Positions 12,827 through 57,849 of a stretch of 64,000 nt of DNA are shown in pieces; within the stretch, counting starts at the first letter, position 1, and each line of letters begins with the position of its first letter. Under the pieces are notes generated by a model, which had not been told where the DNA came from, made no database searches, and saw nothing but the letters and a program-made list of their open reading frames with translations. The translations under genes were made by a program, and so were the position numbers. This stretch comes from Mytilus trossulus (lineage: Eukaryota): contig NC_086379.1 of the NCBI RefSeq assembly GCF_036588685.1, positions 68,138,001 through 68,202,000 on the forward strand. Reading direction: 5' to 3'.

Positions 12827-14276
12827 AGGACTGCTTGCATTACATTTAAATGTGTGAAACAATGTTATATTAAAATCCTTCATTTGTTCAAATCATAGTC
12901 TTCAAAAAAAATTTACAATATATAAGATACTATTTATCAAAGGTACCAGGCTTATAAATTATATAATTAATATGCCAGACTTTGACAGCAAAAGAAACTG
13001 TCTGCTGCTATATAAGTCTAAATATACAGAAGGGACAAAGTTTTCTCGATTGAGATTTATTTTTCATTGCAACTCTTTTTCAAAGGTTTGACCAATTGTG
13101 GGATGTTACAAGTAAAACATGAATTCATATTCATTCATCCTTCACACTTACATTTTAAAACATTATCAAAACTGGGATCAATTTTATGTGCAGTAAACTC
13201 TGATGAAGGTTCTTGTAACTGCTGTTTTGGTATCTGTTAGTTTTATGCAATTGCCTAATGACGATGAATTTATATTTTTATTCACAGATGAAAATATGTA
13301 CTTTTATCCTGCCAAAATCTGCAATGACATTGTAATGAAAAGAAAATGTATTTTATATAGCTAATTTTAGTGTAAATGCTGTAAATACATTTTAGATAGT
13401 CTCTCATAACTCTTTTTAGAGTGACTCTTGTATGTTTTATGATGTTGTTTTGTCAACTGTTTGTATGTTTTATATAATGAAGAGGTGAGACTTAAATAAA
13501 ATATTGTCCTGTCTTCGTATAACCAATATCTATGAGTGTATCAGTTTATTGTACAGTCACATATCTGTTGGAAAAGTAATGGTAATGAATATAAATTCGT
13601 GAAACGAAATCTGTACAACATAATTACATTACAGAACAAAACCATAAGAGAAGTATAGTATGGTAATCATACAAATTGAGACAGGATAATTTTACTTTTT
13701 GAAAGAAAAAAAAAATCTAATGATAAATAAGGAATAATAAAAATGAACCCACTTATTTTATTTACTAATCAATTGTATAATTACTGGGTCACCTCACAGC
13801 ATCCAGTTGTTGCTATAGATACAAAGGGATCATAAAAGTCTGCCTTGCTTCCACATTCTCCCCTTTCCAGGATTCAAGCAAAGGTGCACAATTTATTTTA
13901 CAGTGTGTTAAGTTGTGAATCTTATTTTTAAATTTGTAATTTGCAAAACATGAACAGTTATTTCTGCTTAAGAGTTTGTTAGTCTGCACCTTATGGAAAA
14001 TGGTTCAACAGAATTCATAGAGAACAGATTCTTCTACGAGTCATGAAGTTATGCATGGCTATTATGATTTTTGATCTGTGAGATTGTGTTATGTGGTTAG
14101 GCTCGGCGTTTTGCATTTGCGTCGATTTGCATTTCATTTGACCCGACTTTTTCTTTCATTTGCGCCGATTTTTTTACAGATGAAACGATATAAGAAGATG
14201 TGGTATGAGTGCCAATGAGACAACTCTTCATTCCAGTAATGTTATTTCATTGATCATTGAAGACCTCTTCCGTTAG

Positions 14277-14929: not shown

Positions 14930-16620
14930 GTCCGTTAGCCAGCTGTACATATATTATGAATTGTCAATCATAACATGTATATAACTGTTGTCTCCTGCTT
15001 AAAATCAAGAAGTAAAAACCTAACTTGATTTATACAAAAATGACGAATTAAAAATATATGTACCGCATTCAAATCCATAAAAACGGATACATTCAAATCA
15101 TAAATCTATTCTTGCCGAGTATGTATATGCAACACATCTAATATATTCCTTTCTTATGATTTCGTCTGTTCTATATTTGGCGTAATTGTCGATAACGAAG
15201 GCCATCTTTTCCTTGTCCGGCATACGTACGTACTGGTGGGGGCATTTCTAGAGTTCGCATTTTCTCACAAGGAAGCTATTAAACCAAGATTTCATTTAGG
15301 GTTAGGAATGCATGGTAACCCGAAACATTGGGATAGCCATGTTATATCAACTGCAAATTGAAGCGTTTAACGACCTTGATTGTTTATACAGCCCTCGCAC
15401 GGTCGGCATACCAACAAAATGAAAACAATGTCGTTGTTATTTTAATTTTTAAAGAATTGAGACAGAAGGTGGCTCACATCTTACTTGGTAGATTTTTAAT
15501 TAGTGATCTTAAACAAGTAGCAATATTCTTTTATCATTGTAAGGATATATCTATCAAAAAAAAAAATTTCATTTCAGTTAAAGAAAGTGTTTTCTCAAGT
15601 AAGCTGTTTCATATTTTTCATGTCGTTTTTAATTGTTTTAATACTGTTGAAGGTGAATATCATGTCACTTTACATTAAACTATTAAAATGTTCATCAATT
15701 TTAAGAACCTCAGTAAAAACAGTCTCTGGTAAAAAGAACTTGTTTATAATAATATCATTATAAACAGGACAATGTAAAATAACATGATATTCATCTTCAA
15801 CTGCTGTTTTTTACTAATTTTTAAATTAGTTGGAATATAATGGTTTCATTATGAATAAGTATTCAAAGCATTTCTTTCATTTGGTGTAATTTTGGAGAGA
15901 ATTTTAAGACTGGACTGGAAATTTAAATGAAAATAGTACTTTTTTAGAATTTCTTTGAATAGTAATTTCATGCTGTTATATTTGTGTATTGGGATTATCA
16001 ATTGATTGTTTATAATTATATTCTTGTAGATTTACCTTTTGAACATAATTATGGCCTTATAAATTAAGTAAAACTAGCATTGCCGATATCTTTTTCATTA
16101 TAAGTGCAGATATTTATTAATTTGAGTAAATAGAGAAAAAAAAGTATAAATTTAAAAGATTACCTTTATTAAAATATAAATATGCACGAATCAAACACAA
16201 TTAGTTAAATGAAATAATATTTCACAATCTATATGACATTTTTTCATAATTTCAAATGAAACATTTGAATCTGAAAATGGTAGAGTATATAAACATAAAA
16301 TGATTTATGTATTTATTGTGTTTTTAAAAGATAATTTTATATGTCATATATTATAAGCATTATTGATCTAATTACAATTCATTAATCATATTTGCTGATT
16401 TTTTCCCCACTGATAATGATACAAAAGGATTAATCAAACTAGTTTTACTAACTTATCAACTAATCAACAAATTGTATTGAATACCTTGATGACCGCAAGC
16501 CAAAGACAAGCCAACAACTCAGTGGAACTGTAATTGGCAGAAATGTCTCCATGTCTATATTTTAATGCCATTTATGCTACTTGTCAAAAAGGAGCAATTC
16601 ATTTCATAGTATTTCATGTA

Positions 16621-42915: not shown

Positions 42916-44202
42916 ATAAAGAAGATTTAATATAAGTGAAATGTCAATTTCATTTATATATTAAGCTAGTCTTATGCTAAGTTATACTGACATAAATATT
43001 TGTAATTTTGACATCACACTTATTTTGTTTCTCCACTAAGTTTTAGAATCAGGTTATTGTATATTTTTTTTTTCTGATTTTAGTTGTAGTTGATTTTGAA
43101 TGTTAGATGTGAGAAAAAGATAAACTTGAATTATCCTGGGTACGTCTCAGTAATAATGTTACTAGACAGTACTGTTGATATCTAAACAAATTTGGTCATT
43201 TTTGTTTTCGTAAATTTTGATATATATATTGATTTCACAACTACATACTTTCCACCATTATCAGTAGTTTATTTTTTGTTAAGATCTTTTACTGACTTAT
43301 TCTTGTATTACCTATGCCTTAAGATCAAAGGGGTATATTATTTACATAGTTCTTACAATAGGACATCTGTGCTTTACAGTGAACTTAGCACATTGGCCTG
43401 ATTACGGAGGATCTACAATATTTGAGAATTAAGGAACAGTTGAGTTTGTGTTTTTGTTGTTTTGTAAAAGTTTGCTTACAAAACTTTTAGAATATTCATA
43501 CTTCGCTAAATATTTGAATTCATGGTGAACGTTAACCCATGAAATCTACGAAAATATGTCTCCCACAACTTAATATGGAATCCAGAGAAGTCCTATGCTT
43601 TTTCCCTAAGTAATTCTTGGGTCCTGTTTAACTTCATGACAGAAATTATAGACACTGTTTAGAATGGCATATCTTAATAAATGTCTTGTTTCAAGTGATG
43701 GGTATAAAATAAAAGTCTGTTAAATTGTACATTGTGCATGACTATGTAAGTATTAGTAATGGATCTGTGATAATTTTTGTATGTGATATTAATTGTATCT
43801 TAAGGGATAATGTATGGCTTATGTCACTGGAGTATAAAAATACAGGGAAAAAAATATAATTTAGCCACAACTATATTTACCAAAGAAAGTACAAAAATTC
43901 AAGATTGTCTTTACATTGTATATATTGAAAATGCTAGTTCCTATGTTTGTATTACTGTGAATATGACTGAGGGTAACATATTAGCCCTTGTGCCTCTATT
44001 GTGTTCCTTCTGGTAATGATTCTATTGCCTTTCCTCATGAAGCAGGATGATTATACCGTAAATCCTCAACAATTTGTATAGTATACCATGACCTGTAATT
44101 ACTAATTAGATAACCTTCCATAGGAAAACCTGAATTACTTTATTAGAATTTTTAATATAGTCAAAAACGTTACCGATCAAGTATAGGTTTCATTCTTATT
44201 AA

Positions 44203-44475
44203 GGTGGTACCAAACACCTGAACTAAAATTAATTTGGCTCGTTTAATTTTCTTAAAATTTTGACAAAGTATTTACTTTGAACTTTTGACAAAAATATAAA
44301 AATTTCAAAAAAATTGAACCAACCGTTTAATCAGAAAATTTACACTGGTTATATAGCAGTTTCACAAAAAATTATTTTGATCATTGAGAAGCTTAATATT
44401 CCCTTAACAACACAACGTCATTAAAACGTTCTGCTGATTTTACAGAGTTATCTCCCTGTAGTGTTACGTACCACC
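44203..44475. mobile_element. 273-bp MITE with TTAA TSD (Kolobok/piggyBac-type target)
   Basis: TTAA|GGTGGTACCAAACAC ... GTGTTACGTACCACC|TTAA. Confidence 0.85.
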
Positions 44476-46269
44476 TTAAATGATTTTTGCTAACTTGGGT
44501 CCTTAGGTCATAGATAATAATTTTAACAAAAGATGCCTCAGGGATTAGGTTTGGCCATATCTGCATCTTTAAATCTTTAAACCTAAACTTTAACTTGAAA
44601 CATGACCCGTGATTTTGCCTTGTATAAACAGGTTGACAAGAAAACATATTACATTACACTTTATGGGGGAGCTATACCTCACATTCCTTCCGAGCACCTT
44701 CATTTATTTCGGAACTCTTTCAAATGAGTTTAAAAATCAGAAAAATATAGAATTCAGGACCATGTTTACAGGAGGAATGTAAAAAAAAATTCTAGACTCC
44801 ATGATAGTTCATTCATTTAATACCAGATCCTCCTCAAATTGTGATGAAGGTTTTTAAAAAAAATGTTTAAAAAAAAATCTAATATGAGGGACCATTACTT
44901 GCAAGGTTAATTTGTACAAATATTCAATGATATGTCTTCTTATTGGTATACTACCTGTATTTTAGATCACCTGGCCCTATAACTATCATTTGTAGTCATC
45001 AGTCATAGCCTGTCAACCAACATGGCCACTAAGGCTGAAAATAGAACATACGGGTAAAATGCAAGTACATGTATTGTCTTTTATCTTGAAAACCAAAACC
45101 ATTTTGGGTTATTTCCATATTTTTTTGTTTGTGAGTTTTCACACCAAAGGTTCTTTCATGTTATATACTGGTAATGATTTATGATATTGTAATTGTTGTT
45201 GTTCTTGACTATATATGATAAAAAATCTTTTTTCCCCTTCATTGACTGTCTAAGAAATTGTTATTGATGTTAAAAAGTGAACAAAACACTTACCTATATT
45301 CATATGCAATGTATATAAATATTATTTTAACCTATGCATTTCTAGATGCTTAACTTTTTATATCTATATTACTATATTTTTTTACTCTTGTTTTGCTACA
45401 TGTAGTTGATAAAAAAAAGTTATGATGTGCTATTGCTAATATGTTATTTTTACTTATAATTATTTCTAATTATGTGATTATGTAAAATAATATTTGTAAA
45501 GTTAATAAGATGGAATGTTTACAAGACTGTTCCAGTGGTCTATCAACTGTTAGTGTTTTACAAAATTAGGAAATTAGGTTCTTACTATTTTTCTGTTGCC
45601 ATAGAAAACTTGTATAATTTATGTAAAAATGTGATTTATAGTTTCTGTTTATACAATTATTTGTAACATGACATCAATATATAATTTTCCAGTTAATCTG
45701 TGTGCAGATTGTATATTGAATGTTTAAGGTAGAAAATGCTATTCTTTGGAACAAGGGAGATAATTATGCAAACACAAGGGAGATAATATGAATGTATATT
45801 CTGAAATGTACTCATTTTTACTGAAATTGATGATTTCTCTTTTGGCTACCATCTGATATTTATGTGAATTTTATTTCTAAATGACCTACAAAAATAGGCA
45901 TTGACTATAAAGAGATAAGAACCTTTATTGTTTGAATTCCATAGAACTATATAAGATTTGAGGTAATACCGAAGGAAAATTGGCACAAATGGAACTTAAT
46001 TCTAATCAAGAAAAACATGATTTTAACATATCAACACAAAGTATTTTCCCAACGCAATGTCATAACAAAGAAAAATTAAATCTGGCTTTTGAATGTACCT
46101 CCAAAACTTCAAATTGTCTCAATTTTGACTGAATGCTGTGGTTGGAATAGACAGGATCAAGTTGTTAATGAATTATGGACAATTGAATATAATGTATTTC
46201 CATAAATTATTACTTTTTGAATAGGAGCAATAGATTAATTAGGGTTTCTTGCTGTAAAGAGTTATCAAG

Positions 46270-46390
46270 AATACTATCATGTGATCAAGAGTACAGTCAT
46301 TTGATCATCAATACAATCATGTGACCAAACATACAATCATGTGACCAAACATACAATCATGTGACAAATAGTACAATTATATAATCATGT
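46270..46390. repeat. 20-bp tandem repeat (ATACAATCATGTGACCAAAC)n, about 6 units
   Basis: Visible tandem units. Confidence 0.8.
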
Positions 46391-47582
46391 TGGTATTAGA
46401 CCAAATAATTATATCGATTAAATTCATTCAATAGTATTTTATTACAGGATGTATTAAATATGTTTTATAAATAGTCATTAAATTAAAAAGGTAAATTGGA
46501 AATGAGCAGATCAAGAGTACTGTTCACAGTTTCACATCAGATATACATTTCTGTATTTGACAAATATCTATTTTTAACAAACACATTATTAGTGCTTGTA
46601 TAGATATACTCGTGGAATTAATTTGCAAGGTTTAGTTTGTGGACTCTTTTTCTCCTAATCAGTTTTACCATTATGTGCCATACAATTTATTGTTAAAAAA
46701 ACAGGTGTAATAGTTTACATGGATTTAAAAGCACTTTGAAATTATATTTATTTTATTATGGTATGTGTGTATGAAAGACGGCCAATCAAAGCTATAAATA
46801 AAGATATTGCTTGATACTGACTTGCTAGTTTTTATGTCATTTCCAACAGAAATTATCACAATAGTAGAAAAGGTACAAATACTTTTAGCATCAGTTGCAG
46901 CTGAGTTAGTAATATGTCTGCTGCAGTTACCGGGGTGCCTAAAATTTTAATTCTGGACACAATTGCAATAAAAGACTTCTGTTTAATCCTGTAAACCGCC
47001 AGTTGCTAATAAACCTTGAGGAAATGATATCGTTTTCACTTCCTTTTAAAAATTGACGAATTTTACCACATTGTTATATACATGTTCTAGTTGAAAGGTT
47101 GGAATACTAATACAAATTTGAATGCACACAAAATTCACAAAAATAATCTAAAAAATGTGTCAAATGTCAATGCTACATTACATGTGATAAATTGTATATT
47201 AATAATCTCTCAAAGTTATGGTTGATATCTTAAGCCACCAAAAAAATGACCTGACACCAGGGCTAGACTAATTTTCACCACATTACAATAGTAACTGTTC
47301 CAAAAACATCCACTCTTCATTGCTTTGTTGGTGCTTCTAAAGATCAATTAAAAAACACATAAAATTCGGATTGCTTTTGTGTTTATTGACTCAAAATTCA
47401 GGTCTAAAATCAAGGTCAATTGACCTTTTTTCCAAATCAAAGTCCATTCAACAATATAGAAATAGTGTAAATTCATAAATTATTGTGAAGATTTTATAAA
47501 TGAAAATAATGAGTCTAAATGAGTATCACAATAATAAAAAGGATATCTTGTGTATATATATAAGAAGAAGTGGTATGAGTTC

Positions 47583-48188
47583 AATCACAGTCACGTCTCA
47601 GTCCTTACAGCTGAACGGACGTGCTGGGTCAGCTCTCCTTTACCCGCTATCTTCGATGAGGGTTTACAGTTAGATGTTCAACGACTTACTACTTAAGATG
47701 ACAGAAACCAATCCATGCCGTACAGAGAGACGTAGTAGTTGGCGTACCCGCGTTAACATGCCTCCAAAACCATTGTCTATTATGGGGAGTGTCATGCCGA
47801 TTAACGTCCGAGGGCTGTATCCTAGGCTGTTGGGTGATACGACCTTCATTTCACTGCCTCACGGCTTTGGTCCTGATAACGCTTCCTGTCATCTTCTGAA
47901 CTACGTCCGAGATCATCTACCAGTACTCCTTCATCGAGGCTAGCGGGCTGCCAAGCTGACCAAACTGGCCCTGAAAGCAGCCGTTAGTGAAGAAAAACAT
48001 CAAAATAGTAAACAAAGAAAAATCAACTCACCAAAACCAAGATGGCGGCCTACATATTGCGACCTCCACTACTTGTTCCTGACCCATGGCAACAAATCAT
48101 TTAAAGCTCACCAAACGCCTTCGGGCACCGAGCCGACCGTGCGAGGGCTGAAAGGCCAGTCAAGGTCGTTAAACACTTCCATATATAT
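47583..48188 (+). mobile_element. Highly structured retroposed insert with (AT)n tail and AGTTC TSD, inserted into a common SINE-like repeat
   Basis: The host motif AAGAAG..TGGTATGAGT..CCAATGAGACAACTC is split. AGTTC at 47578-47582 and 48189-48193. GC-richer than flanks, with nested inverted repeats. Confidence 0.7.
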
Positions 48189-48264
48189 AGTTCCAATGAG
48201 ACAACTCTTAACTTTTCAGCCAAGTCACAGTTTGTAAAAGTAAACCATTATAGGTCAAAATGGA

Positions 48265-49470
48265 GCATGTAATGACAAAGTGTCAGCATATAATGACAAA
48301 GTATCAACATATAATGACAAAGTATCAACATTGAATTACAAAGTATCAGCATATAATGACGAAGTATCAGCATATAATGACAAAGTATCAACATTGAATT
48401 ACAAAGTATCAGCATATAATGACGAAGTATCAGCATATAATGACAAAGTATCAACTTATAATGACAAAGTATCAGTATATAATAACAAAGTATCAACATA
48501 TAATGACAAAGTATCAGCATATAATGACGAAGTATCATCATATAATGCATCTTCGCTAGCCATGGGTTACGATCCACTCCCGCTTTCTTCACCCTTGGCG
48601 GATTGGGCCAACATTTGTGAAAACAATGTTGCGCCATCTGTCGGAAGATTTAAGTCATGCCGAATTCATTATTCCTGACCAATTGTAGCACTTGAACTCT
48701 TCAATTTGGAGGTAAAAACACGGTAGTGTCTAGATTCTACACACTTGTTAAAGCCGGAAACGAAAATATATGTAAACATTCATGCATTTGTGCATGAAAC
48801 ATACACAGGAACTTCTATTAGTTGATTAAAAACATTCAAGTTGTCACTTAATATAGTCGTATGTTTAGGGATGTAAAGATTTTTTGCACAATAAGCACTT
48901 GACAATTGTTTACAAACACTTTCTTCATTTTCACGTGGTCATGTTAAGGGCGCTTTTTGATTGGATGCAGCGAGTTTCGACTGCAACCACTAAAAATTCT
49001 TACCCTGTGTCTCCGAAATTTTATCTCCATCCGCCAAGGATGAAAAGAGCGGGAGTGGGTCGTAACCCTTGGCTAGCGAAGATGCTTATAATGACAAAGT
49101 ATCAGCATATAATGGCAAAGTATCAGCATGTAATGACAAAGTATCAGCATATAATGGCAAAGTATCAGCATTAACTAACAAAGTATCAGCATTTAATAAC
49201 AAAGTATCAGCATTTAATAACAAAGTATCAGCATATAAATAATAAAGTATCAGCATGTAATGACAAAGTATCAGCATTAAATAAAAAAGTATCAGCATTT
49301 AATAACAAAATATCAGCATATAATAAAAAAGTATCAGCATATAATGACAAAGTATCAGCATTAAATAACAAAGTATCAGCATATAATGACAAAGTATCAG
49401 CATTTAATAAAAAAAGTATCAGCATATAATAACAAAATATCAGCATATAATATCAAAGTATCAGCATATT
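48265..49470. repeat. 21-bp minisatellite (GCATATAATGACAAAGTATCA)n interrupted by a MITE
   Basis: Visible tandem array on both sides of 48548-49084. Confidence 0.95.
48548..49084. mobile_element. 537-bp MITE with ~55-bp TIRs and a probable 9-bp TSD
   Basis: CATCTTCGCTAGCC...CTTGGCGGA / TCCGCCAAG...GGCTAGCGAAGATG, with flanks CATATAATG / CTTATAATG. Confidence 0.85.
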
Positions 49471-50084
49471 ATAACAGAAAACAATAATAAACTTGCGCAA
49501 AGAAAGTGTGCAAAGTTCGACAATTACTAGTAATGTCTTTTCAGTGATGTTAAGAATCGAAATGGTATAATTGGAAGTCCACACAATTTACCTCAACCTT
49601 GGATAGGCTATTGGATTTTTATATGATAAAATTTAGTTATAGTGTTCCAAATAAGACGGTATTCTACTAAGGCTTTTCTACCACAGGAATATATTACCTT
49701 AGCTGTATTTGGCAAAACTTTTAGGAATATTTGGTCCTCAATGCACTTCAACTTCGTACTTTATTTGGCTTTTAAAAAAAAATATTCGACCGTCACTGAT
49801 GAGTCTTTTGTCTGGCATATTGTAAAATTTTATTCCTGGTATCTATGATGAGTTTTTTTTTATGCATAAAGAAACTAGGTGTATGTATTTCTCATATTTT
49901 TGTGTAAATCAATTTGTTTGGATTGCGAACTAAAAAGTCAAAATTGGTATTTGACTATCTAAGGATCATTCCTAGATATTTTAAATTAATTTGCCAAAAA
50001 AGTTAAATAAACAAACCGAAGCCCGAAGAAAATTCTAAACGAAAAGTCCCATAGCAAATGGTAAGTTCAAAAGCACAAACACAC

Positions 50085-51840
50085 CAGTGACAGCAAAGGG
50101 AAGGCTGAAATACTAATTCAACAATTTAGATCCGTATTCACAATTGACAAATCAACATCAATACCTAAAACAACAAAATACATCAATGAATCAATACCAC
50201 AACTTATTATAACAACTAGGTCTCGAAAAACTACTTAAAGATGCAAACCCATCAAATGCATCTGGACCAGATGGAATACCAAACAGAATACTTAAAGAAT
50301 GTGCATCAGAAATAGCACCAGGACTAACTGACATCTTCCAAACATCAATAGACACTTGATTACTACCCGAAGACTGGCTAAACGAAAACATCTCGTGCGT
50401 CTTCAAAAATGGAGACAAACACGCCACAGAAAACTATAGACCAGTCTCATTTACATCGGTACCTTGCAAACTTCTAGAACAAATCATATGCAAGCACATT
50501 CTAAAACAACTTGATAAACACAGAGTCTTAACATCACTTAAACATGGATTTAGATCTGGCTATTCATGCGAAACCCAACTGTTAGTCACTTTGCAAGACT
50601 TCATGAAAGCATTTGACGCCGGACTACAAACTGACATTGCAATCCTGGATTTTTCCAAAGCTTTTGACACTGTGCCACATAACAAGCTATTATCAAAATT
50701 GGAAGAATATGGAATCCAAGGACCACCTAACAACTGGCTAAATATGTTTCTTACACAGAGGAAGATGAAAGTTGTAGTAGAGGGGGGGAACAATCTGAAG
50801 AGGTAAAAGTGGACTCTGGAGTTCCACAGGGAACAGTACTTGGACCATTACTCTTCTCATGTCACATCAATGACCTCCCAGACACTGTCAAGTCATCAGT
50901 ACGGCTGTTCGCCGATGACTGCCTACTGTATAGAACCATAAAAACATAAAAAGACCACAAACTGCTGCAAGAAGACCTAGCAAACCTATATGATTGGGCA
51001 AATAAATGGGGTATGCGATTTAACGCTAAAAAATGCTACATCCTGAGCATCAAAAACAAAAGCCAGAGATTTTACTCACTCAACGGCCAGATACTCCAAC
51101 AAGTTCAAAACAACCCATACCTAGGAGTGCAGATACCAGAAGACCTGAAGTGGAGCACACACACACAACAAATGTTGCAAAAAGGCAAGCTCAACCCTTG
51201 GCTTCCTCAGAAGGAATTTATGATACTGCCCACATGAATGTAAGAAAACCGCTTACATTGCGTTAGTTAGATCAACAATGGAATATGCGGTAACAGTATG
51301 GGACCCCTACAATATAATAGATGCAAACAACCTAGAGCGTATACAACGACAAGCAGCACGCTTTATAACAGGCGACGACAAAACCAGAGAAGATGGCTGC
51401 GCAACAGACATGCTCGCCAAACTGAAACACGAACGAAAAGCCAAACGCACTAGCCAAAAACTTATATTTTTGTACAAGATGGTTGAGGGATTGGTACCTG
51501 CTATCGATCCAGACGACTTTTTAAAATCAGCCAGACCAAGACGAACCATCACAACGAAGAAGTTTGAAAATTACCAGGCAACAAACATAGTGGAAAAACA
51601 AGTGAGGAACAATACTAGGTGCTTTGACATTCCCACCAGTAAAACTCAGCAATACTCAAACTCATTCTTTGTGTCCACAGTTATTAACTGGAACCATCTT
51701 GAGGACATTATTGTGCGCGAAACGAGCGTTGAGATTAAATCTGTTCTCACGAGACGTCAGTAAATCGACGGTGCCTTCACCTCGTTGTATTTAAAAAGCC
51801 AGAATTGGTAGCTACGACGTAACCATACAGATACAGAATA
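50085..51840 (+). pseudogene. 5'-truncated LINE, frameshifted reverse transcriptase ORF2
   Basis: [66 protein letters not shown] across broken frames. Short (ACAGAT)-like tail at ~51827. Confidence 0.92.
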
Positions 51841-52350
51841 CGCCTGCATTATAAAACAGTATATTTTTTAACATGAAACCAATTTTGTATTGATTTTCTT
51901 TTTACAGTGACAATAACAAATTTATCAGGGAATTGAAACAAGATTGGACATGAGTGGACAAAGATCCATTTAATTTTTTTTTTTTTAATTCCGAATAGTA
52001 TCAAAGGGCTCCATTCATAAAAATATGTTGTATGTATTGTCCATTGACTAGTGTGTATTATCCTATGTTAATTCCATTAACTGTTTTAACTTGAATCGTG
52101 TTACCGGATAATAGATTTAGTCTGACCGTATTTCGGCCCTAGGCTTATACATTTCGCAAGGAGGTGAATGTTGTTACTATTAAAAGTGCAAGACGTATTA
52201 GAATTTGAGAAATTTTAGATGCAATTGGTGAGTAATATATGCATATAAGGTGTTTTGAACGGATACAAATAGTGTTGTGTTTTTTTTTTGTGATTTTACT
52301 TCAATTCAATTCAAATCTTTATTGCCATAAAACTACATATTTATAGTATG

Positions 52351-56345: not shown

Positions 56346-57849
56346 ATTACTTCTTTTTATTATGCATTACTTCTTTTTATTATGCATCCAAATAAGAATA
56401 ATAGTTATTTTTTTTTTAATTGCACTTTTTAAAACAATAAAATCGGCAAAGGGTCTGCAAATAGGTTCCAATGCATGCATATTTACGCGGAAAGTATATT
56501 GTACATACCAGCAATTATTATGTATACCTCTGAGTCTGCGCTAAGTTTAGATCTATCGAGAATTTTGTCACAGTGTTGTTCACAAATCGACGTCATACTA
56601 AAATTATAAATTTTGATCTTTCAGTGCTGTTTATTTGGAATTTTTATTGACGTAATCGTTCTTGTACCATCATAACTGTCGTTACCGTTAAAGATTAAGA
56701 AGTGTACTAGTTTATATTGCACTGTACAAAAGATTCAGCACCCAAATGACGATTTTTGGAGGTCTAGAGAGCAGTTATTTATAAAGGGATATTTTAAAGA
56801 TTTATAGATATAAGAAGATGGTGCATGAGTTCGAATGAGACAACTTTCCACAAAGTATAATGATTTGTTTCAAGTAAACCATTATAGATCAAAGTAGGGC
56901 CTTAAACACGGAGCCTTGGCTCACAGCAAGCACCACGCTATATAGGAACAAAAAAAATACTAGTGTTAAACCATTCAAACAGGAAAACCAACGGTCTAAT
57001 TTTAAAAAAAAAAGGAGATTCAAGAGTACAGGTCAGATTTTGTCGAATCAATCTGAACGAGAACAGTATGATTCATCTTTATCACAAGTTAGTTTCATTT
57101 TTATCAATAAAGAAAGTCTTACATGCATGCATTGCGAGCATATCAGATATATATTCTTTCGATGCGTTCATTATAAAATTGCTAAATCTTAATGATATAT
57201 AGTATGTGAACAATAATGTGATAGCTATTTTATTACGATATTGTTTATTAAACCACATCGGTACTGGCATTTTTCACATTTTGAAAATGGTGGATTGAAC
57301 TTGGTTTTATAGCGCTTAACCTCTCACGTGTATGACAGTCTCATCAAATTCTGTCATATTTACAACGTTGCGTAAACAAAACAGACATAATGGGAAAATT
57401 GTAAACATATGGGTACAGCAGTCAAATATTGATACTAATAAGTGCTAATATTGATATAACAAAAACACCGCTATGATATTTTAAAAGTATCGCATTGATA
57501 TTTTAAAAGTATCGCATTGCTTATTTATGTATATAAGAAAAACACAGCACTTCAAATTTTACACGGACATAAACGTTAGCGTTTAGCTAACTTCTGAATG
57601 TATAATTAGACTCAATTGTTGTTTATATTTGAACAATAAGTTTAAAAGTTAGTATTTACTTAATTTTTCGTTGCCAAAAACAACATTTTCCGCATGAAAT
57701 GTCTGCATGTTTACAATTGATATTAGACAATATCGCTCATTGATATAAGAAAAGTTTTTATCGATACGCTTCTTCCATAGACTGTGTTTCATCTAACTGC
57801 AATTCTGTAGTTACAGACATAACTGAAAGGCGCAATATAAACGCATGTG

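Follow-up and report, generated by a model that had tools for sequence, protein, structure and literature searches.

The heads of SINEs nearly always derive from Pol III small RNAs. Among molluscs, exceptions of Pol II type are few, and Pol II transcription of the LP-SINEs is itself a proposal of the naming paper, to go by the portion of it compared here (PMC4758252). These elements of gastropods and bivalves are short, TSD-flanked retroposons that end in a microsatellite, have no small-RNA head and are linked to a Nimb LINE; those listed are about 255 bp long, with a head of about 70 bp of Nimb-17 type (the 5' end of Nimb-17_LMi) and poly(A)-signal-like hexamers, and the same portion of the paper describes no long rod or 5' extension. 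The Nimb-mobilised tRNA-SINEs of bivalves (Meta, V and 'Unknown') have a LINE-derived tail of 35-61 bp and short satellite ends, and the 37 Mytilida rows in the part of that survey compared here measure 245-418 bp, with a tRNA head assigned or undetermined and no AT satellite (PMC11481361). Bipartite LINEs (RTE, Vingi/Ingi RIME, NARTc and R2 SIDEs) are described, in the relevant sections, as non-coding elements with a LINE 3' end and a probable 5' Pol II promoter (PMC5786205). Two further groups are alike in shape: animal non-LTR retrozymes, whose RNA is highly self-paired with a structured part of 170-400 nt in the account used here (PMC7229834), and 7SL-derived SINEs (Alu, SINE1-1_EBu), in which, by the passages compared, a 5' hairpin precedes a long branched rod and the hagfish element has a LINE-derived tail (PMC7245038).

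The family described here, as judged from its sequence, is closest to the LP-SINEs, and in mode it is apparently a tail-sharing stringent SINE. It shares with the LP-SINEs their general build, the proposed Pol II transcription and the Nimb link, but its head is unlike theirs by eye, its motifs are absent from the LP-SINE sequences given in that paper, and its LINE link lies at the tail, whereas theirs lies at the head (PMC4758252). It differs from the bivalve tRNA-SINEs in being 593 bp long and in having no tRNA head. The 37 Mytilida rows include no family of 600 bp (PMC11481361); the FASTA library of that survey, Repbase and Dfam lie outside the comparison and may hold the family. Unlike bipartite LINEs as described in PMC5786205, its 5' part matches no LINE that we found, the partner included. 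Unlike the retrozymes of PMC7229834, as far as that account goes, it is flanked by TSDs, starts at a fixed 5' end and carries a LINE tail, and it has no hammerhead or tandem ribozyme-bounded repeats, although its structured part, at 335 nt, is of similar size. Unlike 7SL-derived SINEs, it has no similarity to the 7SL RNA of its own genome or to the Rfam SRP models. Literature searches with four family motifs returned no relevant paper, and LP-SINE terms led to nothing beyond the original report (PMC4758252).

We analysed a 64,000-nt window of AT-rich DNA from Mytilus trossulus. The parts of the insert, and one related piece elsewhere in the window, are as follows.

47578..47582 (+): left TSD, AGTTC, lying within an abundant host repeat
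47583..47587 (+): 5' extension private to the window copy, an instance of the family-wide G-poor addition of CAT/CATT/CAATC type
47588..47626 (+): conserved 5' hairpin, based on fold, conservation and motif scan
47627..47961 (+): predicted rod-like domain, based on folding, covariation and pairing probabilities
47627-34/47954-61, 47643-59/47931-47, 47671-76/47914-19 and 47695-704/47886-95 (+): outer rod helices
47751..47806 (+): apical stem-loop, with the strongest covariation in the rod (pairs 47754/47803 and 47756/47801)
47962..47987 (+): conserved post-rod segment
47988..48080 (+): A-rich linker with the conserved AAGATGGCG motif (48040-48)
48081..48180 (+): LINE-related tail, with a UUCG hairpin at 48117-26; its last 49 nt are 48132-80
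48181..48188 (+): (AT)n terminal microsatellite, here (AT)4, a mark of the window copy's subfamily
48189..48193 (+): right TSD, AGTTC
15357..15407 (-): old tail-only piece of the same LINE/SINE system, about 50 nt (84% over 51 nt)

A sequence-only reading had placed the insert at 47583..48188. The insert is real, but the family core runs from 47588 to 48180, and 47583-87 are specific to this copy. The six complementary arm pairs that it proposed are all present where it placed them, as are the 5' hairpin, the (AT)n tail and the AGTTC TSD, which at 5 bp is short against the family mode of 11-12 bp. Intact copies of the host repeat, free of insert, lie at 14188-14228 and 56803-56845. In older A copies, 47965-71 is an alternative pairing partner of 47626-32. 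The AAGATGGCG motif we take to be YY1-site-like or ORF-start-like.

The insert belongs to a family that is dispersed and, to judge by its copies, recently active. The best 40 of 945 candidates in the 1.3-Gb assembly are all further full-length copies, at 93-100% identity, which begin at the equivalent of 47588 and end at the equivalent of 48180 plus a microsatellite. The head 13-mer has 196 exact occurrences, compared with 42 for a reversed control; inspection of 63 of these places found 43 full-length copies, six split by indels, nine with the head only and five without a profile match (three short head fragments and two apparent chance occurrences). The exact AT-tail 25-mer occurs 342 times, and the first 30 places comprise 21 copies with both ends, two with a truncated body and seven tail-only pieces of about 50 nt. 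These two counts, taken with the inspected fractions, suggest some 150-250 full-length copies. TSDs of at least 8 bp flank 68 of 80 distinct two-ended copies, with a mode of 11-12 bp and a range of 8-16 bp; automatic TSD calling was wrong for a few copies, the window copy among them. For comparison, TSD lengths of zebrafish Nimb-2 peak at about 12 bp, according to the section of PMC4245944 used here. Microsatellite ends across the family are AT, ATC, AGTT or TTG. Alignment of 47 copies separates three subfamilies, A (that of the window copy), C and B, with mean identities of 79% between A and C and 66% between A and B. No open reading frame is conserved: the longest ATG frame ranges from 16 to 122 aa over 42 copies, and the 89-aa frame of the window copy is not conserved across copies. 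With many copies, fixed ends, TSDs of variable length, no conserved frame and a LINE-shared tail, the family bears out the proposal that the insert is a non-autonomous retroposon. At least half of the element's words were found in 19 sequencing runs from four organisms (the kind of run being a guess), none of them listed as RNA, and a 24-nt head pattern had no match among metagenomic or viral contigs.

A LINE of 7.3 kb ends in nearly the same sequence as the SINE: 44 of the final 49 nt are identical, with a weaker likeness over a further 50 nt or so upstream. The UUCG hairpin of the SINE stands where the LINE has a GCAA hairpin; it was read from the sequence, and the SINE tail folded in isolation gave a different structure. 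The LINE was traced through a tail variant ending in TTG repeats, which occurs 537 times. Among the first 30 such places, nine have long upstream sequence in common and none has the SINE body, and the sequence upstream leads into the 7.3-kb LINE, flanked by an 11-bp TSD. In an intact copy (L210; L numbers are our locus handles), ORF1 is 490 aa long and its CCHC match is weak, under the Pfam cut-off, while ORF2 has 1275 aa with AP endonuclease, RT and RNase H. Fourteen RT-bearing places show 93-100% identity, and four keep the exact 5' start. Given the CCHC ORF1 and the endonuclease-RT-RNase H layout of ORF2, the predicted proteins identify the partner as an I-group LINE. Its clade is probably Nimb, with which TSD length and tail motif agree; in the part of PMC11481361 compared here, a similar CGTTAAAC closes the Nimb-linked tail of a bivalve SINE. 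On the strength of the LINE-shared tail and the TSDs, we class the family as SINE-type, a passenger of the I-group LINE that this genome also contains. The earlier view that the insert fits no known class thus holds for the head, which matches no known RNA, but not for the element, and its caveat that the insert might be ordinary LINE 3' UTR applies to the last 49-100 nt, which do match, but not to the rod.

Extra bases between the left TSD and the element start occur in 74 of the 79 full-length copies with a TSD of at least 9 bp (median 14). Relative to the 3' flanks, these extensions are enriched in CATT (9.5-fold), CATC (11-fold) and CAATC (41-fold), and also in CATATC; they contain 4.5% G, against 16.7% in the flanks, and do not contain the element's own CAGT. 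The same words form a 22-nt extension between TSD and start in one LINE copy (L123); the intact copy L210 has no extension, and two other LINE copies are without a 3' end in the DNA examined. Tail-only pieces mostly have 0-2 extra 5' bases. Extra 5' nucleotides have been reported at six of 30 Nimb-2 inserts, with no such word pattern described in the section consulted (PMC4245944), and a literature search on patterned 5' additions found no paper title pointing to one. The words resemble the ATC, AATC and ATCC tails of mytilid SINEs, as tabulated in part of PMC11481361, which makes repeated jumping to the ends of other RNAs a possible source; such jumps or untemplated synthesis would account for the extensions. 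At L164, a 49-nt extension holds about 22 nt matching the flank just upstream of the LINE copy L210, possibly a template jump onto another transcript. The patterned extension gives a lead, open to test, on the way in which I-group reverse transcriptases complete the 5' junction.

The rod was assessed by folding. Positions 47620-47970 reach -121.4 kcal/mol (z -4.37), a value that none of 100 shuffles equalled, and the whole insert gives z -3.23, with none of 20 shuffles as good. Pairing probabilities are about 0.8-1.0 in five of the six helices; that of the apical helix (47751-56/47801-06) is 0.01 in the ensemble of the window copy. Compared with 30 shuffles, the plus strand gives z -5.25 and the minus strand z -4.75; since both strands fold well, energy alone gives no strand choice. 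The LINE-shared tail and the changes that keep G-U pairs indicate, at the level of sequence, that the plus strand is the RNA strand, so that the proposal of a structured plus-strand RNA agrees with these two signs but draws no strand preference from folding energy. Folded singly, older C and B copies have a plus-strand z above -1 in 10 of 11 cases, and in copy L116 the minus strand folds better than the plus; the outer rod is still formed by the older copies L116, L132 and L133.

Covariation was examined in the six helices of the sequence-only reading (52 pairs), which had been chosen before any other copy was known, using 19 A, nine C and 14 B copies, with five intermediates excluded. Between A and C, two-sided changes leave the bases paired in four of four cases, with two one-sided breaks and four of the 52 pairs undefined. 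Between A and B, six of six two-sided changes are paired and two one-sided changes give G-U, against six one-sided breaks; 14 of the 52 pairs are unalignable and thus undefined. Controls with slid partners gave 0-1 paired changes, so the compensatory changes that had been anticipated among copies are present. They amount to six distinct pairs, two of them in the apical helix that is absent from the MFE structure of the window copy, and represent two subfamily splits, not many independent events. On the MFE structure, a 31-row alignment has 96 compensated cells, against 49 +/- 7 when shuffled; the count of compensated pairs, 29, is equalled by 35 of 500 shuffles and is not beyond chance, and one-sided changes on the full MFE structure keep pairing in six of 19 cases, no better than the background of 0.33. 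In B, the changes to G-U (two one-sided, one at a former mismatch) preserve a pair in the plus strand but not in the minus. RNAalifold returned hardly any structure for the 31 mixed and truncated rows and an implausible one for B alone; MAFFT misaligns the middle region between A and B. Taken together, the predicted pairing of the rod has likely been maintained by selection.

The head was searched for a known origin. Rfam gave no match at E <= 1 over 44000-52000, and in ten loci of older copies it gave five weak matches, all outside the element; ARAGORN found no tRNA in the element. By Rfam, ARAGORN and 7SL alignment, the head has no tRNA, 5S or 7SL homology. Several specific candidates were rejected. 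Local alignment to the genome's own SRP RNA gave p 0.61 on the plus and 0.067 on the minus strand, with no profile match. A head taken from the 5' UTR of the partner LINE gave no match to the family profile, and the first 100 nt compared with the partner start gave p 0.18. An HDV-like reading of 47626-47982, made by eye, has no P3 pairing and no space for P4. As for a MITE or other DNA transposon, the complementary arms are internal, not terminal, and the TSD varies in length, in line with the original claim that the arms are not DNA TIRs.

We consider it probable that the insert is a non-coding SINE-type retroposon with a rod, as predicted, likely under selection, and that it is likely copied by the RT of the co-resident I-group (probably Nimb) LINE, because the SINE 3' end matches the LINE 3' end. 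Transcription would start from an internal promoter, most likely for Pol II, with an initiator at +1 as in the LINE start. ORF2p would bind the terminal stem-loop of the SINE RNA and nick the target at positions about 11-12 bp apart, and target-primed reverse transcription would start from the (AT)n end. It might stop just past the terminal stem, giving a tail-only insert of about 50 nt, or traverse the rod, and short G-poor words would be added at the template 5' end by untemplated synthesis or repeated jumps to RNA ends. The rod would most likely compact and protect the RNA or aid capture of the LINE protein, a part for which the structured domain of Alu offers an analogue. One genome thus brings together a young SINE, its partner LINE in intact form and older compensated subfamilies, a system that allows a direct test of RNA structure letting a passenger capture LINE machinery. 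That the family represents a new class of SINE head, driven by a Pol II initiator and carrying a selected rod of about 335 nt, to which the partner RT adds telomerase-like, initiator-like words that rebuild the upstream promoter bases at each insertion, seems to us unlikely.

The element starts CAGTC, and CATTC is the start of three LINE families, the partner among them; both we take to be initiator-like; GGACG at 47617-21 is presumably DPE-like, one base off the expected spacing. Two 11-mers, which we label A-box-like (47608-18, +21) and B-box-like (47675-85, +88), have one and two mismatches in the window copy. On such motifs, Pol II appears a somewhat better than even candidate and Pol III a little less than even. 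Element-covering contigs from four sequencing runs revealed no transcript start, strand or level. A doubtful, though serious, alternative is a Pol III SINE with a strongly diverged small-RNA head, unusual and SINE2/SINE1-like, using these boxes. Over ten copies scanned, each box has 1-3 mismatches; the A box has one in six of the ten, and the B box one in the B copy L132 and 2-3 in the young subfamilies, and the window copy contains no TTTT. Wherever the B-box-like motif was picked, however, the normally invariant C is replaced by one and the same base, an internal TTTT is present in 19 of the 38 long copies, and the head has none of the small-RNA matches described above. A similarly doubtful reading is that of a bipartite non-autonomous LINE, in which the 450-nt head would represent the complete 5' UTR, as far as the start of ORF1, of an extinct or unsampled I-group LINE. 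An internal deletion would then have joined the head to the LINE 3' end, the rod being a 5' UTR structure and mobilisation proceeding as for the SINE, and we hold this version of events possible to the same limited degree. The element has its initiator-like start in common with LINE families, the conserved A-rich stretch with AAGATGGCG resembles the ORF1 start context of LINE family L214, and bipartite LINEs are a known type considered in PMC5786205, as far as the sections used show, to be Pol II transcribed. In those sections, however, short derivatives of this kind are attributed to RTE, Ingi/Vingi and R2, and Nimb is not mentioned. The family profile has no match in the 5' regions of 20 LINE stretches (about eight families, the partner included), and none of the 63 examined head matches of the 196 runs into LINE protein sequence.

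Two further readings concern the rod itself. It might be a decayed inverted duplication that has no function as RNA and whose arms are kept similar by template switching or by conversion at the DNA level, which we regard as improbable: the two strands fold about equally, the 65-nt arm pair of the rod is 74% complementary and B has many one-sided breaks, but the pairing is split into short helices with conserved asymmetric loops, the arms are internal, and the G-U changes in B favour the plus strand. Scarcely credible, in our estimate, is an origin as a viroid- or retrozyme-like rod, formerly propagated as a circle cut by ribozymes and afterwards taken over by a LINE tail. The length of about 335 nt and one junction that resembles a broken hammerhead recall such elements. 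The junction combines GAAA at 47704, a 5-bp stem at 47707-11/47867-71 (probability about 0.3), a UC site and CUGAUAA at 47873, but it (47704-11, 47867-79) lacks stem I, has a core mismatch and is missing from B; it is likely a chance resemblance. The CUGANGA core is absent from the plus strand of 47 copies and from both strands of the window copy, and Rfam finds no ribozyme in the element, in keeping with the sequence-only reading, which had recognised no hammerhead. The copies are TSD-flanked monomers with no terminal or tandem direct repeats, whereas animal retrozymes are described as tandem hammerhead repeats in the part of PMC7229834 compared, and no back-joint over the rod was seen in element-covering contigs of four runs, whose RNA status was guessed and whose contigs show presence, not absence. 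The viroid-like analogy of that reading is thus a likeness of shape only: the element is very probably not a catalytic replicon, and the finding does not indicate a new viroid-like one.

Several observations concern the tail and its insertion sites. Many tail-only inserts of about 50 nt with their own TSDs (L061-L090, L180-L209 and window 15357-15407) begin at a near-identical position immediately 5' of the terminal stem. Among 41 TSD-bearing tail fragments, a good number of them array units, 10 have their first base one position ahead of that stem. Such a common start points to an RT stop, a cut in the RNA or a mini-family. Two tandem arrays (G000:C1:80.147 Mb and C1:91.69 Mb; L031, L039) have a 68-bp unit made of a tail fragment plus target sequence and constitute a satellite born from a LINE tail. 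The SINE adjoins tail-only or LINE pieces at L007, L025, L105/L203, L251, L269 and L270, with identical TSDs at L007, L025 and L105; these side-by-side pieces are repeated insertions at one target. Independent insertions also coincide at one position some 25-30 bp behind a TATA-like motif of a repeat, and at another upstream of histone H1 genes (L007, L012, L068, L262; L091, L092, L062/L124; L210), a possible preference for core promoters.

Elsewhere in the genome, another I-group LINE family (L213; G000:C1:4.77-5.07 Mb) has several ORF2 frames of 1193-1283 aa, clustered in a histone-gene region, and the 7SL RNA genes form a tandem array of units of about 920 bp at G000:C3:53.49-53.62 Mb (L230-L239; 25 scored). 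At L132:1990-2055, in the flank of an older copy and outside the element, twister-P1 gives a weak match (25.7 bits, E 0.18) whose core looks intact. Within the window, frameshifted pieces of another LINE ORF2 with RT-like motifs lie at 50065-51763 (+). Directly to the right of the insert, 48264-49476 holds two 21-bp tandem arrays, between which an inverted pair of segments lies at about 48548-48597 and 49031-49083.
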